In this document: positions 3,096 to 61,470 of the stretch, piece after piece | Layout of the letters: every line of letters starts with the position of its first letter | Numbering within the stretch: the first letter of the stretch is position 1 | DNA from: Candidatus Gottesmanbacteria bacterium | Lineage (GTDB): Bacteria > Patescibacteriota > Microgenomatia > UBA10105 > UBA927 | Assembly: GCA_963790805.1 (NCBI GenBank) | Contig: CAWBPL010000002.1 | Location: 704,696 to 768,695 of the forward strand | Direction: 5' to 3' | Length of the DNA: 64,000 nt | Notes under the pieces: model-generated | What the model was told of the DNA's origin: nothing | What the model saw: the letters and a program-made list of their open reading frames with translations, nothing else | Databases searched by the model: none | Made by a program: the position numbers and the translations under genes

Positions 3096-3272
3096 ACGCG
3101 TAACCCTATCATATCATTTTTACGTCAGATCGCGTACGAAACGGCATAGTGCTGGGACCCGTTCGGTGTGCTCAAGGTGAACTTTGCAGTTTCTTTCCAT
3201 CCTCACTAAATGAACGTTTGCGATTGGGAATTGACTCTACAATTCTCGCGCAAACGTTCAGGTTGTCCGCAC
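3096..3272. repeat. palindromic interspersed repeat, family E copy 1
   Basis: Shares the blocks ACGCGTAAC, GGGACCCGTTCGGTGTGCTCA, ATCCTCACTAAATGAAC and GTTCAGGTTGTCCGCAC with the reverse complement of 61331-61470. The internal hairpin differs in sequence but not in form (GTTTGCG..CGCAAAC here, CCCCGCCG..CGGCGGGG there). Confidence 0.75.
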
Positions 3273-3312
3273 TATGGTTTTGCACGCGATCCTCACGAGG
3301 CTTTCAAGGGGT

Positions 3313-3474
3313 GGCGCGGGTTGAGGGGCTCCCATCGAGCGCCCGCAGTCTCGCATTACTACGAATTACGTGAATAGGATATAAGAGGTTGTTTTGTGAC
3401 CAGAAGACAATAGGTAATATTTAAGCAGGTTTGCGGGACGAGGACGTCGGATGGGAGAAAACCCGCGCCAGTCC
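3313..3474. repeat. palindromic interspersed repeat, family A copy 1 (long hairpin)
   Basis: GCGCGGGTTGAGGGGCTCCCATCGAGCGCCCGCAG ... GCGGGACGAGGACGTCGGATGGGAGAAAACCCGCGCCAG. The two arms are mutually complementary. The same arms recur at 38931-39090 and 48901-48973. Confidence 0.8.
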
Positions 3475-3480
3475 TTGCTT

Positions 3481-3520
3481 TAAACAAAAACCAAAAGGAG
3501 CCCTTTTCAGGGCTCCTTTC
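3481..3520 (-). terminator. rho-independent terminator candidate for the 3542-4198 gene
   Basis: On the minus strand the sequence is AAAGGAGCCC-TGAAAA-GGGCTCCTTT, a perfect 10-bp stem, followed by TGGTTTTTGTTT. It lies about 20 nt after the stop codon. Confidence 0.7.
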
Positions 3521-3541
3521 CAAGTTCAATTTATGTGCGTA

Positions 3542-4198
3542 TTAAACGCTTAATTTTTTCTTGATGATCATCGCAATACCGCTTACAGTGGAAAGTCCAC
3601 CCATAGCGCCGACGACGTTCATAAGCATTTCATCAGCAACACCGGTGCCTGCAAATTCGGTTGTGGCACCCAAGACCTGTCCCTGTGGAGCTGCTGTGCA
3701 TGACGGACAGCTTGATCGACCGTCACTTCGTCCGTCTGATCGTCCATCGCCGGGACCACCCGGATTTGATGGAGGCTGAGTCACAACCGGCGTCGGGCTC
3801 GGCGTTACGGTCGGAGTCGGACTTTCACAAGGATTTTTGTCCTTGTTAGAGTTAAAGCTATATGTGACTTCTCCGCCATGATTCTGACACGGATCTACGG
3901 TTGGCGTAGGAGTCGGTGTGTTGTGATCATGGTCGTGGTCGTGGTCATCGCCTTTGTCGCCACCATTGTCGCCACCTTGGTTTCCACCATTATTGCCACC
4001 GTTATAGCCTTGATCGCCACCTTGGTTTCCACCATTTCCACCTTGGTTACCTCCCTGATTACCACCTTGGTTTCCACCTTGGTTACCAAAATCGGAAAAT
4101 GCCGGTTTAACTGAAACCGCGAGCGATGTGCCAACCATGGCACCAACAATTACTACAATACCAAGAACACGAAGCATTTTATTTTTCATAAAAAACAC
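3542..4198 (-). CDS. secreted low-complexity surface protein with a C-terminal sorting-signal-like tail
   Basis: 218 aa. It has a signal/TM N-terminus, (GGNQ)n repeats, a DHDHDHDH tract and PT-rich linkers. The C-terminus reads TTEFAGTG-VADEMLM-hydrophobic-KKKLSV. The gene is adjacent to a sortase. Confidence 0.6.
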   Translation of the reverse strand: MFFMKNKMLRVLGIVVIVGAMVGTSLAVSVKPAFSDFGNQGGNQGGNQGGNQGGNGGNQGGDQGYNGGNNGGNQGGDNGGDKGDDHDHDHDHNTPTPTPTVDPCQNHGGEVTYSFNSNKDKNPCESPTPTVTPSPTPVVTQPPSNPGGPGDGRSDGRSDGRSSCPSCTAAPQGQVLGATTEFAGTGVADEMLMNVVGAMGGLSTVSGIAMIIKKKLSV

Positions 4199-5356: not shown

Positions 5357-5481
5357 GCGTGATGCGCGCTCGCGAACGAAAATTTTGATGCGTCTTCAGT
5401 TTCAAGCGCCTCTTCTCCATATGCTTAATCCTTAAGAGAAAGTGAAGCCGCACAACATTTTGTTCGCTCGACGCATCGCGC
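5357..5481. repeat. palindromic interspersed repeat, family B copy 1
   Basis: The reverse complement aligns along its length with 36173-36317 (GCGCTTGAAACTGAAGACG.ATC.AAATTTTCGTT.GCGAGC and CGGCTTCACTTTCTCT). The outer arms GCGTGATGCGCG...CGCATCGCGC are complementary. Confidence 0.8.
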
Positions 5482-5532
5482 TTTTTTACCCAGTCTATAG
5501 ACAAGCCATGCAAACTCTCCTAAGATAGAATC

Positions 5533-8620: not shown

Positions 8621-11149
<2,529 letters not shown>

Positions 11150-11701
11150 TGAAATAAGGTCAAAATTGACCTATAATCAACTGATTTCATTAAGCTCCAT
11201 GAGTAGGCCTCTATAAATTTTATATAACGTACCAAATTTGAACCATTTCAGAGAGCGCTAGCGATCATATACGGTGACTGATTAAATTAAAGATCATTAT
11301 AGAGCCTCAAATAACAATTTTAACTTATATTAAATTGTTATATACATAATGTCGTAAAATATATTATCTAACATACAAAAATATCTTTTAGTAAATGATT
11401 ATACGATATAATTTTCACCGGAGAGGTGGCTAAATTTTTAGTATCATAGTTTTTTGAATTTGTGAAATATTATATCTTATAGAAAACACCTGTTTTTAGG
11501 TATTAATTAACCCATAGAAAACAGGGTAAAAATGACACTTCAAACCTTATAATAAAATAGTATAGGGAAATCGTGTTATTTAGCTTGATTTGACGATATT
11601 TCTAAAATCCGGCGTGCAAAAGGATTGCCGTTATGGCACAATAAAAGGGAGGTGAGGCAAATTAGCTTCAAATATACGGAAAGCTGCCTTCCTTATTATA
11701 T

Positions 11702-11950
11702 ATGGCGGAAATGCTGAAGGTTCGTATAAACTCGCCAGAGAGGCTTTTATGGGAGGGGGAGGCACTTTGGGTGTCTTCAAAGAATTCACAGGGTCCCTTT
11801 GACATCCTACCGTTCCACACGAATTTTGTTACTATCCTAGAAAATGAAACAATCCGTATAAATTCGGGTGACAAGGTAACTGAGTATAAATTTTCCCGAT
11901 CCGTCATCTACGTACACTCCAACAACGTGTACATCTATACCAACATCTAA
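11702..11950 (+). CDS. atpC: F1 ATP synthase subunit epsilon, N-terminal beta-sandwich domain only
   Basis: 82 aa. LKVRINSPERLLWEGEALWVSSKNSQGPFDILPFHTNFVTIL fits the epsilon N-terminal-domain pattern. The ORF ends where the C-terminal helical hairpin would begin. It is embedded in an AT-rich tract. Confidence 0.6.
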   Translation: MAEMLKVRINSPERLLWEGEALWVSSKNSQGPFDILPFHTNFVTILENETIRINSGDKVTEYKFSRSVIYVHSNNVYIYTNI

Positions 11951-31000
<19,050 letters not shown>

Positions 31001-35862: not shown

Positions 35863-36120
35863 GCGGAGGCTTCGTTCGACGCTCTCGTCCAATATCTATG
35901 TATTAAAAGACAGAATCGGTCGTGCGGGTTTTCTCTGTTTGGGCTCCCGCTTACATTTTTTCGTCCTCACTAGTTGCGGGTCCTGTCAACTGTGTATTCC
36001 AGCGATATCCTCGTCCCGCACCGGATCTCAAATGGTGTATTATTTTATCTTCTGATCGCACAACGACCAGTTACAGTAAACAAAGAATCGAGAAGCATTC
36101 GTGCGGGATTCCGGATTCGC
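35863..36120. repeat. palindromic interspersed repeat, family D copy 1, with a degenerate reversed family-A-like insert
   Basis: GCGGAGGCTTCGTTCGACGCTCTCGTCC and GAAGCATTCGTGCGGGATTCCGGATTCGC match the arms of 61113-61259. The interior GTGCGGGTTTTCTC...CGTCCTC...TCGTCCCGC resembles the reverse complement of the family A arm. Confidence 0.6.
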
Positions 36121-36172: not shown

Positions 36173-36317
36173 GAGCGCGATACGTGCGAGCTAACAAAAT
36201 TTTGTTCGGCTTCACTTTCTCTTTAGAAAAACGTGTCTGGACGGGTGAGCGCTTGAAACTGAAGACGAATCTAAATTTTCGTTTGCGAGCAACAGAAGAG
36301 CGCGACCGTTATGCGCG
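36173..36317. repeat. palindromic interspersed repeat, family B copy 2
   Basis: Aligns with the reverse complement of 5357-5481 over about 140 nt. Confidence 0.8.
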
Positions 36318-36338: not shown

Positions 36339-37082
36339 TTATTTCCTCGCCACCACCAAAAGCGTATCCCGCAAACTCGCCACCATAAGCATCAGGGCGT
36401 AGTTTGCGAATTTTCCGGCTTTTAACCAGATGGGGTCGGGAACCATCCGCCGTCTCATCGGCGTATAACTCACAAAATGGGCGGCACGTTCGACAGAAAA
36501 ATTCGTATGACGCATTAATGTCGTTACTTCATTCAATGTATACTCCCGATTATGCCGGTGATAGATGTTGCTCCCTAATCCTTCGTTATCCAAGACCTGA
36601 TGAAGGGGGTATGTGACGCTTTTTCCGAGTAATAATTTTGCGCGGTTAATGCTTCGGGCTATATTTGGGGTTGTCAAAAGAAGTTTTCCCTGAGGCTTCA
36701 GGACGCGATGCATTTCGTTGATTGCCCAAACAGGGGACTGCGGAAGATGTTCGAGGACCTCTGTACACAAGACAAAATCGAAAAAATTGTCGTCGAATGG
36801 AAATTTGTCGGTTTCAATGTTACAAATTTTGATTTTTTTACTTTTTATCGGTTCATGGGTGGAGGAAATTCCGTACACATTGTGTCCCAACATCTCCAGT
36901 GCCGCGCCGAAATGGTAGGGGAAACACCCGGCATCCAGAACCTTCCACTTTTTGTCGCCGGATAGCTCGACAATTTGTTCTAAGATATACCGGTATCGTG
37001 CCTCGTGAATAAGAAAGTACTCGTGTTCCTTGGGATTCGCGATTTTTGCTTCTACACTTCGAAGAATTTCCGTGACAGTCAT
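36339..37082 (-). CDS. class I SAM-dependent methyltransferase
   Basis: 247 aa. Motif I is VLDAGCFPYHFG, followed by DFVLCTEVLEHLP and LKPQGKLLLTTPN. Confidence 0.8.
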   Translation of the reverse strand: MTVTEILRSVEAKIANPKEHEYFLIHEARYRYILEQIVELSGDKKWKVLDAGCFPYHFGAALEMLGHNVYGISSTHEPIKSKKIKICNIETDKFPFDDNFFDFVLCTEVLEHLPQSPVWAINEMHRVLKPQGKLLLTTPNIARSINRAKLLLGKSVTYPLHQVLDNEGLGSNIYHRHNREYTLNEVTTLMRHTNFSVERAAHFVSYTPMRRRMVPDPIWLKAGKFANYALMLMVASLRDTLLVVARK

Positions 37083-37605: not shown

Positions 37606-39882
37606 ATGTCTTCTCAGGATCATATTCGTAACTTTGCCATAATCGCCCATATAGATCACGGGAAAAGTACCCTTGCGGACCGTTTGCTGGAAATTACCCA
37701 TACGGTGGCTATGCGCGACATGCAGGCACAGATCCTTGACAGCAACCCTATCGAGCGCGAGCGGGGAATTACGATAAAGCTGGCGCCGGTACGGATGCAT
37801 TACAGTCGCGGGGATAAGGGATTGGTATTAGGTATTACGCAGAAACCAAATGTAGTTTCCCCTAATACGAAATACGAAACCCCTAATACGATTGAGAATT
37901 ATATTCTCAATCTTATAGATACTCCCGGACACGTTGATTTTGGCTATGAAGTGAGCCGGTCGCTTGCGGCTTGCGAAGGCGCCATACTCGTTGTTGACGC
38001 GACGCAGGGCGTGCAGGCGCAGACTTTAGCCAATCTCCATCAGGCACGGGCTCACAACCTTACGATTATTCCGGTTATCAATAAAATCGATATGCCGCAC
38101 GCACGCATTTCGGAAACACGCGAAGAATTGCGGGCGCTGGATTTTCGCGATGAAGAGATGATAGAAATTTCCGCAAAAACCGGAGAAAATGTTGAAAAAG
38201 TATTGGAGGCAGTGATAGAAAAAATTCCTCCGCCGACCGGAAATTCTGAAAAACCGTTGCGGGCTCTGATATTTTCTTCACAGTATGATACCCATAAAGG
38301 AGTAGTTATTTTTGTACGAGTTGTTGATGGTACTTTACCTTTTGATACACATACGAGTATTCGCTTTATGTTTTCAAATGCCTCAATTACTCCGATAGAA
38401 GTTGGTTTTTTCATGCCTCAAATGTTGGCATCTGAGGCGATTAAAACTGGAGAAGTTGGTTACGTTGCAACCGGTTTGAAAGATGTCCGGTTCGCAAAAG
38501 TAGGCGACACGGTGACGGTAGGAAGGGTCGTCAACGCCACTGTACAGCCGCCTACGGCCCGCGAGCCGCTAGCGGGCTATAAGGAGCCTAAATCGATGGT
38601 ATTTGTGAGCCTGTTTCCAATACAGACTGACGCATTCAGCCGTGCACGCGAAGCTATGGAGAAATTGCGCTTAAGCGACTCGGCATTTAACTTCCGGCCG
38701 ATTTCGTCGCTCGCTTTAGGCAACGGTTTCCACTGCGGATTTTTGGGACTTCTGCATGCCGAAATCGTGCAGGAGCGCCTGTCGCGGGAATTTGATTTGA
38801 ATATGATTGCAACCGCGCCGTCTGTCGAATATCATCTGACCATCAAATCCGGTGTGTCGCTTTCCAAATTAGGCCTGACGGCATCAAATATAATTGATGA
38901 AGCCATGCGGGAAGAAGGCGGGTCGCGGGTGACGCGGATTGAGGGGCTCCCGTCGAGCGCCCGCAGCCCCGCTGCTACAGGAGACACAGAGCAGGAAAAT
39001 TCCGGTGTGAGTGCGAACGAAAAAACTCGACAAATCAAACAAAAGGAAACGGGCGAGGACGTCGGACGGGAGAAATCCGCGGCAGGACCCGACGTTCGCG
39101 CGGCTGAGGTCGTGAACGAACATTTAGATCCGTCTTCAGTTCTCTCGCGAAATCAGAGTGTCTCATCCATACAATCATTCTCGCTCGCAAATGAATCCGG
39201 ACAAAATGTTGTTCACTCCCCGCCGCGTGGTACTACCGTTGCTATCCAATCGGCCGCAGAATATCCGGATCCGACCGTGATTGAGGGTGTCCGCGAACCC
39301 ATTATGGAAGTGAAAATTTTTACGCCGAAACAATATGTCGGTGCCGTTATGCAACTATCTGAGGAAAAGCGGGGAGAGTATATTGATCTTAAATACGTCG
39401 GAGAGCAGGCGGAATTTACCTATCTTATCCCGCTTTCGGAAATGATTGTCGACTTTTTTGACAGGCTCAAGAGCGTTTCTGAAGGCTATGCCAGCCTTGA
39501 TTATAATTTTTTTGAATATCAGGCGGTGAGCGTCGCGAAAGTCGACATACTGGTCAATAAAGAAAAAGTCGATGCACTCTCGTTTTTAGCGGTGGAAAGT
39601 CAGGCCCGCCATCGGGCGATTGCTATTGTAGAGCGCCTCGCCGACGTTATTCCACGCCAGCAATTCCAGATTCCGATACAGGGGGCGATCGGCGGACAGG
39701 TAATCGCCCGAAGCGACGTCAAAGCATTTAGGAAAGACGTCATCCAGAAGCTCTACGGCGGTGACCGTACGCGCAAAGACAAACTTCTCGAAGCGCAGAA
39801 AAAAGGAAAAGAACGAATGAAATTAGTCGGGCGCGTCGAAATTCCCCAATCTGCTTTCTTTGAGGTGTTAAAGAGAGAATAA
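37606..39882 (+). CDS. lepA: elongation factor 4 (LepA) carrying two in-frame insertions
   Basis: IRNFAIIAHIDHGKSTLADRLL, DTPGHVDF, NKID, the LepA-specific C-terminal domain (DFFDRLKSVSEGYASLDYNF) and the tail KKGKERMKLVGRVEIPQSAFFEVLK. At 758 aa it exceeds the usual ~600 aa. Extra segments lie at about 37826-37900 and about 38850-39250. Confidence 0.95.
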   Translation: MSSQDHIRNFAIIAHIDHGKSTLADRLLEITHTVAMRDMQAQILDSNPIERERGITIKLAPVRMHYSRGDKGLVLGITQKPNVVSPNTKYETPNTIENYILNLIDTPGHVDFGYEVSRSLAACEGAILVVDATQGVQAQTLANLHQARAHNLTIIPVINKIDMPHARISETREELRALDFRDEEMIEISAKTGENVEKVLEAVIEKIPPPTGNSEKPLRALIFSSQYDTHKGVVIFVRVVDGTLPFDTHTSIRFMFSNASITPIEVGFFMPQMLASEAIKTGEVGYVATGLKDVRFAKVGDTVTVGRVVNATVQPPTAREPLAGYKEPKSMVFVSLFPIQTDAFSRAREAMEKLRLSDSAFNFRPISSLALGNGFHCGFLGLLHAEIVQERLSREFDLNMIATAPSVEYHLTIKSGVSLSKLGLTASNIIDEAMREEGGSRVTRIEGLPSSARSPAATGDTEQENSGVSANEKTRQIKQKETGEDVGREKSAAGPDVRAAEVVNEHLDPSSVLSRNQSVSSIQSFSLANESGQNVVHSPPRGTTVAIQSAAEYPDPTVIEGVREPIMEVKIFTPKQYVGAVMQLSEEKRGEYIDLKYVGEQAEFTYLIPLSEMIVDFFDRLKSVSEGYASLDYNFFEYQAVSVAKVDILVNKEKVDALSFLAVESQARHRAIAIVERLADVIPRQQFQIPIQGAIGGQVIARSDVKAFRKDVIQKLYGGDRTRKDKLLEAQKKGKERMKLVGRVEIPQSAFFEVLKRE
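38931..39090. repeat. palindromic interspersed repeat, family A copy 2, inside the lepA coding frame
   Basis: GACGCGGATTGAGGGGCTCCCGTCGAGCGCCCGCAG ... GGGCGAGGACGTCGGACGGGAGAAATCCGCGGCAGGACCC. The arms are the same as at 3313-3474, with a compensatory A>G / T>C change. Confidence 0.8.
39095..39220. repeat. family B-related repeat segment inside the lepA coding frame
   Basis: CGTGAACGAACATTTAGATCCGTCTTCAGTT matches CGCGAACGAAAATTTTGATGCGTCTTCAGTT at 5371-5401. GGACAAAATGTTGTTCACT resembles the other family B arm. Confidence 0.6.
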
Positions 39883-45822: not shown

Positions 45823-45861
45823 GTTTCGTCAACCTCGAACCATACGGTTCGGGATTGGCCT

Positions 45862-46050
45862 TAGTCAGCAACCTTCTTTATTAGAACCTGCCGTTTCTAA
45901 AAATTCGAGTTGCTGACTAGGGCGAGCACAGTGTTTTGTTGATAGATTTATCCTAAATAAGGATATTAAGCCCGTGAGGACTCTATCAAACAAAAACACT
46001 GTGCATCGCACATTCAAGCGGAGGAGCTCCGCGATAATTTGCGAAGCTCC
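45862..46050. repeat. cluster of three strong hairpins
   Basis: (1) TAGTCAGCAAC (45862-45872) pairs with GTTGCTGACTA (45909-45919), an 11-bp perfect stem. (2) GCACAGTGTTTTGTTGATAG (45926-45945) pairs with CTATCAAACAAAAACACTGTGC (45983-46004). (3) GGAGCTCCGCGATAATTTGCGAAGCTCC (46023-46050). Confidence 0.7.
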
Positions 46051-46110
46051 TTTTGCTCGCATGTTGGGTCGAGGCGGACCAGTGTTGGGACACATGGTTG
46101 CCTCCTTCGC

Positions 46111-46797: not shown

Positions 46798-47404
46798 GAT
46801 ATTCTCCAGTCTGTTTGAATATGAGGTTGATTTGGAACTGAACATTGGAACATTTTGGAACTTTTGACTTTTTTTGGTGAGTTACCACCTCCTCTCTTAT
46901 TTGGATTTATTTTCGGCGAAAAGCATGCCTATTACGATTCTGAACCGGTTCAGAACCATAATCGGCATGCTTAGCCGGAATCCAAGAAAGGATCAACCAT
47001 TGGAGAGTACCGAAAGATCTTTCACCTTGCCGTTTTCCTAACCTAACCTAAACCTTTCCATCTAATAACCCAACAAATTGTGAATGTGCGACTATTGATC
47101 GGAACAGGCGTATGGGTAGTCGCTTCAGATGCAAATATCATGGCGGCTGCCAATCGTGTCCATTCGTCTCTCACCCGTTTCAAATGCTTCCCTTGACTTC
47201 GCTCGGGATACCTTATCCTGAGTTTGCTAGGGATGAACCCGGGAGTCAGGATTGCCAGTCGCAATCCTCACTTCCGAATTCGGCTTCCATTGGCCAAACA
47301 AAAACCGGCTTCCTTATTCGGGTCCGCCGGTCACATATTCTTTCGTATTAAATTTTAATTTCGTATTATTGGCCGGCAGACCAAAGGATCATATGTATTA
47401 CGCT

Positions 47405-48849: not shown

Positions 48850-48900
48850 GCTTCTTGAATGGAGTTTAGAAATCCTTTTAGTGTTAAACAGCGTACGGGT

Positions 48901-48973
48901 GACGCGGGCAGAGGGGCTCCCAAGAAGGGGTCCCCTTGTGGGTGTTCTTGGGAGAAAGCCCGCGGCAGGACCC
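48901..48973. repeat. palindromic interspersed repeat, family A copy 3 (short form)
   Basis: GACGCGGGCAGAGGGGCTCCCAAGAA-N18-TTCTTGGGAGAAAGCCCGCGGCAGGACCC. The flanks match copies A1 and A2. The stem is a perfect 10 bp (CTCCCAAGAA/TTCTTGGGAG). Confidence 0.75.
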
Positions 48974-49233
48974 CAAGTGTGATTGGTAGGGAGTAAGTTG
49001 ACGAACGGCACCTCGGGAATAGCCTGAATAAGCACGGTTTTCGTACACGCACTGTCCGTACAGTTTGTATGGTTGTAGCAGTATTCGTAAATGACCTGCC
49101 AAGAGTTCATAGTGTAGGGCGAAATTATACACTATAGGTCAAGAAAGAGCAAATAAGCCACGCTGATTTGTACGGCGCATATTGTATAGAATTGTGGACA
49201 GGTTTATACTATTGGTGATTATTTTTTGAATAT

Positions 49234-49560
49234 ATGGGAAGAAAGACAAAAGAAGACTTTCTTACATCCAGCGCGATGCAGTTGGGCTTTGATGTCAGCT
49301 CGGTTTCTCTGGCTCAGGATGGGACGAAAGAGCTTACGGTCGAAGACTTACCGGGTTTTTCTCGCAACGTTCCTGCGCACGTTCAGACCGCCATTACACA
49401 GCAGGCGGCCGATTGTGGTGTAGATGTTCGTCTATATCTTTTTGCATATCACAGGTACCCTACGACATTTGAAGCGTTTTTGGATGCATATAAAGAAAGC
49501 GGCGGTTCTATTTCGCAGGCGGTAAACATTATGTCGAAAGACGAGACTTCAAGAGCGTAG
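49234..49560 (+). CDS. hypothetical protein
   Basis: 108-aa ORF with no recognisable motif. Confidence 0.4.
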   Translation: MGRKTKEDFLTSSAMQLGFDVSSVSLAQDGTKELTVEDLPGFSRNVPAHVQTAITQQAADCGVDVRLYLFAYHRYPTTFEAFLDAYKESGGSISQAVNIMSKDETSRA

Positions 49561-54734: not shown

Positions 54735-54848
54735 AGGTTCACGATTATAGGATAAGATAGGTATTTAATCAACCATGAAACGAAGTTGGATCTTGAGTTT
54801 TTTCTCTTCCTCATGCATACTAAACACGACAAAATTGAAAGGGGAGAT

Positions 54849-55265
54849 ATGCGCGAACAAACGGTTGTACTCATTAAACCTGACGGCGTCGAAAAGCACA
54901 TTATCGGCAAAATCATTGACCGATTCGAATCCAAAGGACTGGTCGTCAAGGCACTCAAAATGGTTCAACTTACCCAGCCCATCCTAGACGTCTGGTATGC
55001 TCACCACAAAGATAAACCGTTTTTTGCCGATTTATCCAAGTTTATGATGTCAACTCCCGTTGTCGCGATGGTTCTTGAGGGTGAAGGGGCAATCCAAAAA
55101 GCATTTGCCATCTGCGGTCCGACCAATCCCAAAGACGCCGCTATCGGTACCATCCGGCGGGATTTTGCAGAAAGTAAGCAGAAAAACGTCGTCCACCGCT
55201 CCGACAGCGCTGAAGCCGCGAAAAAGGAAATCGGGCTTTTGTTTACAAAAGAAGAGATCTCTTAA
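54849..55265 (+). CDS. ndk: nucleoside diphosphate kinase
   Basis: EQTVVLIKPDGV, a catalytic His context NVVHRSDS (usually NxxHGSD) and the NDK fold pattern throughout. I prefer ATG 54849, which is preceded by GAAAGGGGAG, to the TTG 54786 used in the track. Confidence 0.9.
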   Translation: MREQTVVLIKPDGVEKHIIGKIIDRFESKGLVVKALKMVQLTQPILDVWYAHHKDKPFFADLSKFMMSTPVVAMVLEGEGAIQKAFAICGPTNPKDAAIGTIRRDFAESKQKNVVHRSDSAEAAKKEIGLLFTKEEIS

Positions 55266-56552: not shown

Positions 56553-56625
56553 TCGGGACGGGCAGATTTGAACTGCCGACCTCTCGGTCCCGAACCGAGC
56601 GTTCTACCAACTGAACTACGTCCCG
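56553..56625 (-). tRNA. tRNA-Pro (anticodon CGG)
   Basis: Hand-folded on the minus strand. Acceptor: CGGGACG/CGTCCCG. D arm: GTTC-AGTTGGTA-GAAC. Anticodon arm: CTCGG-TTCGGGA-CCGAG. T arm: GGCAG-TTCAAAT-CTGCC. The discriminator is A and no CCA is encoded. Confidence 0.85.
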
Positions 56626-56667: not shown

Positions 56668-56739
56668 GCCCCTATAGCTCAACGGATAGAGCAGACCCGT
56701 CCTAAGGGTAAGATGAGGGTTCAATTCCTTCTAGGGGTA
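56668..56739 (+). tRNA. tRNA-Arg (anticodon CCT)
   Basis: Hand-folded. Acceptor: GCCCCTA/TAGGGGT (G1-U72 wobble). D arm: GCTC-AACGGATA-GAGC. Anticodon arm: GACCC-GTCCTAA-GGGTA. T arm: GAGGG-TTCAATT-CCTTC. No CCA is encoded. Confidence 0.8.
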
Positions 56740-61112: not shown

Positions 61113-61259
61113 GCGGAGAATCCATTCGACGCTCTCGTCCTATACCGGATCTATCCATCTGCTTCATCGCGTCTATTGTTCACACAACTGTCTTTTTTGG
61201 AACAATTCAACATTCGGGAAGCATTCGTATAGGACTCGACCGCGAATGGGAATCTCCGC
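61113..61259. repeat. palindromic interspersed repeat, family D copy 2
   Basis: The ~32-nt arms GCGGAGAATCCATTCGACGCTCTCGTCCTATA and TATAGGACTCGACCGCGAATGGGAATCTCCGC are imperfectly complementary. The TTCGACGCTCTCGTCC block is shared with 35863-35890. Confidence 0.7.
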
Positions 61260-61330: not shown

Positions 61331-61470
61331 TGGACAACTTGAACCCCGCCGCTAGTCGTATTGAAATATAAAGACTGTAACGGCGGGGTTCATTTAGTGA
61401 GGATTGAAAATATCTTCATGATTCATTATGAGCATACCGAACGGGTCCCAACAACATGTTGTTACGCGTA
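61331..61470. repeat. palindromic interspersed repeat, family E copy 2 (reverse orientation)
   Basis: The reverse complement shares the conserved blocks of 3096-3272. Confidence 0.75.

Follow-up and report, generated by a model that had tools for sequence, protein, structure and literature searches.

Palindromic repeat families, probably mobile, in the spacers and reading frames of a Candidatus Gottesmanbacteria genome

The stretch analyzed here (64,000 nt, referred to as the window) comes from contig CAWBPL010000002.1 of a Candidatus Gottesmanbacteria assembly (GCA_963790805.1, positions 704,696 to 768,695 of the forward strand). It has mostly 42%–50% G+C and carries ordinary genes, including sortases, glycosyltransferases, the atp operon, and MreB; the nearest named homologues of its LepA belong to the Patescibacteria, or candidate phyla radiation (CPR), and to Candidatus Gottesmanbacteria. 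Five families of palindromic repeats (A–E), with units spanning 77–258 nt, occupy seven spacers of the window and the interior of lepA. Their copies are given below together with lepA. Bit scores refer to R1, a covariance model derived from 19 distinct A copies of the short form, which found exactly three A copies in the window, all on the plus strand.

A1, 3309–3474, plus strand: long form, intergenic, directly after E1; R1 match 3301–3481, 39.3 bits
A2, 38927–39090, plus strand: long form inside lepA, whose open reading frame (ORF) runs across it; R1 match 38919–39097, 41.9 bits
A3, 48897–48973, plus strand: short form (81-nt class); R1 match 48889–48980, 101.8 bits
B1, 5357–5482, minus strand: intergenic
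B2, 36173–36317, plus strand: intergenic, adjoins D1
B3, 39095–39220, minus strand: inside lepA directly after A2, reads in frame ..AAEVVNEHLDPSSVLSRNQ..
C1, 4311–4419, plus strand: intergenic hairpin
C2, 6851–6960, plus strand: hairpin upstream of atpA
D1, 35863–36120, plus strand: long and rearranged, with an internal second left arm
D2, 61113–61259, plus strand: hairpin adjoining E2
E1, 3096–3272, plus strand: inverted ends of about 22 nt and an inner hairpin
E2, 61331–61470, minus strand: reversed family E copy
lepA (EF4), 37606–39882, plus strand: host of A2 and B3; 758 aa, against about 600 aa for a typical EF4

Self-BLAST of the window, run with a collagen-like gene block at 13.3–31.1 kb masked, returned seven repeat pairs at E ≤ 0.01, compared with none in each of 20 dinucleotide shuffles. 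The pairs for families A, B, C, and E had E-values from 4e-24 to 7e-3. They join positions 5368–5482 of B1 to the reverse complement of 36174–36290 in B2 (82% over 117 nt, E = 4e-24), with an arm of B3 (39110–39141) matching both remaining B copies; 3137–3215 of E1 to the reverse complement of 61388–61466 in E2 (77%, E = 6e-10); 4313–4412 of C1 to 6854–6954 of C2 (73% over 104 nt, E = 7e-9); and the arms of A1 (3309–3354 and 3436–3471) to those of A2 (38927–38972 and 39051–39085; 89% and 86%). Families A, B, C, and E, which had been proposed from direct comparison of the letters (the original prediction), are thus real and solid. Family D is weaker: it showed up only in two collinear matches between arms, both short (35863–35894 against 61113–61144, 84%; 36083–36111 against 61209–61237, 76%) and is rearranged, with a duplicated left arm in D1. 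A degenerate reversed A copy proposed at 35921–36020 fell away, scoring 8.1 bits (E = 0.067) with R1 in a 551-nt search with filters off.

Each unit had been described as a long hairpin. This held for A1 (z-score against shuffles of −6.95), A2 (−2.0), A3 (−2.0), B3 (−3.8), C1 (−2.6), C2 (−3.6), D2 (−2.9), E1 (−2.2), and E2 (−5.2) and had to be given up for B1 (−1.5), D1 (−1.6), and B2 (+0.18), whose folding was no better than that of shuffles. A1 folds into a single long hairpin and has stops in all six frames. [quoted passage not shown] In agreement with the earlier impression that they belong to no named family, a scan of the window at the Rfam gathering threshold returned two tRNAs only and no match to the elements, and E-value scans of the element-bearing spacers returned only generic miRNA-like hairpin noise, nothing credible.

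The spacers of the source genome are generally hairpin-rich, yet the five families do not fill all of them, and the statement that nearly every long spacer is filled was too strong: besides the seven spacers and lepA, other long spacers hold unrelated hairpins. One at 45823–46110 consists of five tandem strong hairpins (z = −8.7), and another at 46846–47404 reaches z = −5.2; both arrays are unrelated to A–E, have neither a second window copy nor an Rfam match, and may represent additional families. At 3486–3522, directly after A1 and just 3′ of the stop of a minus-strand gene (3542–4198), lies a canonical terminator-like hairpin (AAAAGGAGCCCTTTTCAGGGCTCCTTT).

Units combine differently from place to place, and the reported combinations E+A, D+B, D+E, and A+B inside lepA were all correct. 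Similar arrangements were observed in loci that we fetched from other contigs (numbered with an L). A family E copy with 72% identity to E1 was found in L014/L022, where E also precedes A, between different genes. L058 contains a B-like copy, and in other genomes AddA and LepA genes have A copies with a lone B arm next to them. Within the window, the arms of B3 match B1 and B2 at 88%–93%, and the three-way B alignment has 71% column identity. Pairs with compensatory changes numbered 5/32 in B, 5/30 in C, and 16/52 in E, the last beside conserved loops.

Family A allowed a detailed model of its fold. The short-form consensus is GCGGGTGRCGCGGGYAGAGGGGCTCCCAAGAAGGGGTCCCCTTGTGGGTATTCTTGGGAGAAARCCCGCGRCAGGACCCGC. 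From the base, it forms P1 (GCGGGU/ACCCGC), an asymmetric loop, P2 (CGCGGGY/RCCCGCG), an AGAGGGG/AAA loop, P3 (CUCCCAAGAA/UUCUUGGGAG), a small apical hairpin, and then GUGGGU. The four-helix base is common to A copies and the apex is replaceable: in long forms (A1, A2, and those of L014, L060, and L061), the base is kept and the apex is swapped for 60–110 nt, so units of 81, 84, or 87 nt coexist with units of about 110–170 nt. In a MAFFT alignment, 94.7% of cells were paired, compared with 53%–58% when the 3′ partner was slid by one or two columns. Covariation, which the original prediction had proposed as a check, was clear: seven pairs showed double changes, and 0/500 shuffles reached the covariation score. 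The model-based alignment revealed whole-helix swaps (CGCGGGY/RCCCGCG to CACAGGC/GCCUGUG to CACGCAU/AUGCGUG), and A2 differs from A1 by compensatory changes in helices P2 and P3. The position beside P2 is G/A in 13 copies, A/G in 14, A/A in two, G/C in one, and G/G in none. In the window, this purine–purine position lies at 3318/3466, 38936/39080, and 48906/48964, and is G-C in A1.

The copies are not confined to the window, and A occurs in many independent assemblies. A search of metagenome contigs with a 23-nt left-arm pattern gave about 25 real A copies, on low-GC contigs from several projects. The same pattern matched 16 stretches in GTDB species-representative genomes, a set that does not contain the source genome; two of the stretches were full A copies, one on a contig of a Patescibacteria metagenome-assembled genome (MAG) and one on an unplaced 1.8-kb contig; L016 was a further weak R1 match, and the remaining stretches were high-GC chance matches. 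Over the window and fetched loci, R1 gave 31 matches at E ≤ 2e-5 (30 distinct sequences after deduplication), including diverged copies invisible to the left-arm pattern. Altogether, the contigs outside the window with family A number about 25, are low in G+C, and come from several metagenome projects and from the GTDB Patescibacteria MAG. A scan of viral contigs with the right arm of A gave no matches. A3 is open in five of six frames, and its core is 1 nt away from that of the lepA-internal copy of L061/L051. It lies between a divergent sortase gene and an ORF at 49234–49560. Where the domain and the transmembrane segment of the sortase fall suggests that this protein truly begins at Met88 (about 48849), in which case A3 would lie 5′ of its start.

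The copies inside lepA can be placed on a known structure. The window LepA has the Pfam domains GTP_EFTU, EFG_C, and LepA_C, and the frame stays open throughout the A+B unit, which is read through. A2 reads ..VTRIEGLPSSARSPAAT..EDVGREKSAAGP.., and the A2+B3 frame would yield peptides such as IEGLPSSAR and EVVNEHLDPSSVLSR. LepA residues 419–542 (124 residues) have no counterpart in Thermus thermophilus EF4 (5imq), in which the residues flanking this segment are adjacent, indicating that the insertion sits in a turn. We relied on mapping to the solved EF4 sequence because an AlphaFold model of LepA (14-sequence alignment, mean pLDDT of 52, inserts modeled as low-confidence coil) was too poor and was set aside. 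Homologous LepA proteins have variable inserts at the same loops. A search with the 104-aa lepA insert gave no match at E ≤ 1e-3 among 1.84 billion representatives, which is uninformative for a low-complexity query, and a 62-aa A peptide gave no word-sharing candidates, equally uninformative for a query so short and low in complexity. A palindromic insert was also considered in atpD (567 aa) and rejected, as that protein has low-complexity terminal extensions only.

About half of the A copies fall within long ORFs. By Pfam, the hosts are LepA, the LeuRS editing domain, an AddA/UvrD-PD-(D/E)XK helicase, ComEC, and GT2, together with a PEGA protein and a TPR protein; a methyltransferase is a further host. 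Relative to the host gene, seven copies run in sense and nine in antisense orientation, and they are read in at least four frames, with peptides as different as VTRIEGLP, GGARRGAP, GPVAGFLPR, and VLPRAFSQ. An A insert of 46 aa in the L061 methyltransferase is absent from its 65%-identical orthologue in the window (36339–37082), which makes the two a filled and an empty site. LepA proteins with A copies were found in the window, L026, L060 (two copies), and L061. A single lepA loop holds a long A plus B in sense orientation in the window, a long A in sense in L060, and a short A in antisense in L061/L051; in a second loop, L060 has a short A in sense, and L026 has a B arm together with a short A in antisense. 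Stops are present in all frames of intergenic A1 and absent from genic A2 and B3. Eight of the 11 length classes between fixed A anchors equal 1 modulo 3, the three off-phase classes being all intergenic, and length variants in the codon-phased classes differ by whole codons.

LepA of CPR bacteria has variable inserts at five or more loops, for example in L062, in L026, and at 37810–37893 of the window (LepA residues 69–96). Their peptides are typical of further palindromic repeats (CHPGPRAGIHE..WIPGQARND, VIPAKAGIQ.., and the KTENRGQKTEN type), and one, VIASGAKQS..SRDDK, derives from the palindrome GTCATTGCGAGC..CTCGCGATGAC. The variety of these inserts suggests that in-frame palindromes are a general CPR habit, extending beyond families A–E.

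We consider it probable, with a likelihood of roughly 75%, that A–E are mobile DNA repeats of Patescibacteria/CPR, palindromic and non-autonomous, that form new families and behave like the Rickettsia palindromic elements (RPEs). This reading draws on the repetition, the fold with its covariation, the spread across genomes, the filled and empty site, the frames open in both orientations, and the codon-phased lengths; mobility as their cause, and the identity and mode of the enzyme, we infer. Copies would land in spacers and in coding sequence. Those in genes would survive only in surface loops, and only when they add whole codons without a stop; transcription and translation would turn them into peptide insertions that are rich in Gly, Pro, and Arg and probably disordered. 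A trans-acting, structure-specific enzyme that copies the element may recognize it as a folded single strand (of DNA, possibly of RNA), and a tendency to land beside or inside one another would yield the E+A, D+B, D+E, and A+B mosaics.

A bolder version of this reading, which we offer tentatively and regard as rather unlikely, is that family A, and perhaps others, is a long-lived replicator defined by its structure and specialized for coding sequence. Such an element would be codon-phased, open in five of six frames, translated into innocuous Gly/Pro/Arg-rich loops in any frame, copied by a structure-specific enzyme, near-invariant across CPR species, and a major source of loop insertions in LepA, LeuRS, AddA, and other proteins. 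If true, the elements would be a major source of the lineage-specific loops that make CPR housekeeping proteins long and variable.

Several observations weigh against mobile repeats. As noted from the start, no transposase domain was present in any window ORF tested, and no candidate mobilizing enzyme is linked to the elements. Nor was there a general target-site duplication (TSD): perfect 6-nt flanking repeats occurred in three of about 25 copies (L026 has a perfect TGATGA on both sides; L058 and L052 have 6-nt repeats one base off), and 5-nt direct repeats flank four further A copies, most copies having none. Such 6-nt repeats are commoner than chance but are not the rule. No autonomous parent with A ends, in the sense of unpaired A arms enclosing a gene, was found in about 320 kb of window and loci. 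In about 258 kb of related DNA, neither C nor D turned up and B did so only weakly, and copy number in the source organism is known from the 64-kb window only. The left arm of most external A copies was fixed by the search pattern (the right arm and apex were not), which inflates its apparent conservation. Translation of the inserts as loop insertions is suggested by uninterrupted frames only. Finally, genomes that share only about 70% identity in lepA DNA have short A copies with 94%–99% identity, differing by 1–5 nt at non-homologous sites. Such near-invariance is not expected of a purely selfish, decaying element and would require recent transfer or strong constraint.

With Escherichia coli RayT as bait, we detected a Y1 transposase resembling the tyrosine transposases associated with repetitive extragenic palindromic (REP) sequences (RAYTs) on L057, a contig with two A copies (PF01797, 37.8 bits), and related genes (PF01797) on further loci.

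L057, 1148–1789, minus strand: RAYT-like Y1 gene
L065, 154–789, plus strand: RAYT-like Y1 gene
L066 and L067, 10001–10636, plus strand: RAYT-like Y1 gene

Homologues number more than 2,500, among them some assigned to Candidatus Gottesmanbacteria and some that share a contig with lepA; the gene adjoins ndk or lepA in three CPR genomes. The three RAYT-like genes examined (L057, L065, and L066) are bracketed on both sides by a 19-nt palindrome, TTCAAAGCT(A/T)AGCTTTGAA (TTCAAAGCTNAGCTTTGAA), which is none of A–E. This looks like a genuine REP–RAYT system in CPR relatives. The window contains neither the 19-nt palindrome nor a RAYT homologue, and no A copy was found in the RAYT-bearing loci L065–L067. 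A link between the RAYT-like genes and A–E is not supported, given that these genes have a different REP of their own, are absent from the window, and occur in L065–L067 without A. The window ndk (54786–55265, plus strand) overlaps a longer minus-strand ORF and is homologous to L057 817–1090; the 564-nt spacer that follows it (to 55829) is empty in the window and holds the RAYT-like gene in relatives.

The covariation and near-invariance of family A would also be expected if the elements were functional structured RNAs, such as small RNAs, hairpins for processing or stability, or cis elements resembling terminators, whose fold is conserved for use by the cell. Conserved unpaired AGAGGGG and GUGGGU, the covarying G·A/A·G purine pair, and the 16 compensatory pairs and conserved loops of family E fit this explanation, as does an excess of G-U plus U-G (13) over A-C plus C-A (5) in paired cells of A, although that excess is small and partly an alignment effect. 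We nevertheless find it improbable: about half of the A copies are intragenic, the sense and antisense counts (seven and nine) imply that no single RNA strand is consistently expressed, the sites are non-homologous and in unrelated genes, with one orthologous site filled in one genome and empty in the other, and Rfam gave no match. We are similarly skeptical that A–E are REP or REPIN populations with a domesticated RAYT (Y1/HUH) as their driver, like those of Pseudomonas or E. coli. The short A hairpin of about 81 nt has the size of a REPIN, its covariation and the irregularities conserved in it would suit an enzyme that recognizes single-stranded DNA in folded form, L057 carries a RAYT-like gene beside two A copies in a lineage in which homologues are common, and one preprint describes conservation across large evolutionary distances as typical of such systems (bioRxiv 10.1101/2021.07.10.451892). 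Against this stand the different palindrome around the RAYT-like genes, the absence of both from the window, the RAYT-bearing loci L065–L067 with no A copy, and the frequent intragenic location of A, as REPs are extragenic by definition. There is also no conserved GTAG or CGTC tag in A: GTAG is present in GGGTAGAGG of some copies and is replaced by GCAG, GTTG, GCCG, or GCTG in others.

That inserts keep frame and sit in loops of many proteins could mean that the repeated unit is a protein module selected for its peptide, with the DNA palindromy incidental. This seems very improbable to us, since at least four frames on both strands give unrelated peptides, many copies are intergenic and some of them have stops in all frames, base-pair covariation points to constraint at the nucleotide level, and the peptide search gave no conserved protein family. 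An assembly or binning artefact, or a duplication confined to this assembly, has nothing in its favor beyond the source being probably a metagenome-assembled genome, and its likelihood is close to nil: dozens of contigs assembled independently in different projects contain these elements too, with flanks that differ.

The known system that mobile repeats of this kind most call to mind is the RPE, and of the three comparisons originally suggested (REP sequences and the bacterial interspersed mosaic elements, BIMEs, built from them; MITEs; and RPEs), this one stood. Like A–E, RPEs comprise several palindromic families of about 80–170 nt that look non-coding, occur in spacers and in frame in unrelated housekeeping genes, and have no associated transposase or clear TSD; about half of the copies are intragenic. 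Dispersed units of roughly 100–150 bp are a feature of RPEs. In Rickettsia conorii, 44 insertions were reported, and nearly half of RPEs are in ORFs (PMC10969869). A–E differ in their host, Patescibacteria and not Rickettsia; family A differs in its fixed structured base, exchangeable apex, codon-phased lengths, and use of at least four frames in both orientations, and in the 94%–99% identity of its short form across genomes that are about 70% identical in lepA DNA. Since the host differs and no sequence relationship is claimed, we describe the elements as working like RPEs and not as RPEs. REP sequences, REPINs with their RAYTs, and BIMEs share with A–E hairpins with compensatory pairing, mosaics in spacers, and persistence across related genomes. 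However, A–E are longer, often intragenic, and without a GTAG/CGTC tag, and they do not flank the RAYT-like genes, whose REP is a different one; on location, tag sequence, and RAYT association, membership in this group fails.

Imperfect palindromes of about 100–150 nt with size variants owing to internal insertions are also known as ERIC/IRU, Correia/NEMIS, Coxiella QMITE, BOX, and RUP, and some bacterial MITEs fuse in frame with host ORFs, as two articles indicate (PMC10969869; PMC5896051). For A–E, no defined signature of terminal inverted repeats plus TSD emerged, and no parent insertion sequence turned up in the roughly 320 kb of window and loci, which makes a place among MITEs tentative. 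Read-through copies within essential genes are far commoner in A–E than is the norm for MITE families. Another comparison is one of design only. Integron attC sites have a conserved paired base, fixed irregularities, and a variable terminal structure, and are recognized as a folded single strand. Family A is built alike, with irregularities at fixed places in its paired base and a variable end; it differs in having no integrase, cassette array, or R/L core sites, and in sitting inside genes.

Full-text searches of the literature library used gave no paper linking such elements with CPR. In-frame "selfish" palindromes are textbook material mainly for Rickettsia. A–E would add a second large natural system in which to study how proteins tolerate or exploit inserted peptides, with several co-occurring families, one of them in many genomes, and would offer a concrete cause for many unexplained insertions in CPR proteins. 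Consequences for annotation would include inflated ORFs, spurious small ORFs, and assemblies broken at repeats. The well-defined A fold, with its conserved purine–purine pair, provides a handle for finding the enzyme that moves it.

The window has further features of its own. A 17-kb block at 13376–31000 contains giant collagen-like genes (G-X-Y, with a 9-nt period) of 58%–62% G+C, compared with about 46% for the genome; the N-terminus has two phage-integrase SAM-like domains, and long ORFs overlap as if frameshifted. The region before it (11150–13375) is low in G+C (about 36%), includes a 550-nt spacer of the atp operon between atpD (9446–11149) and atpC (11702–11950), and contains a 29-nt direct repeat at 11386 and 12314. 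Two divergent tRNA genes lie 42 nt apart at 56553–56625 (minus strand) and 56668–56739 (plus strand).

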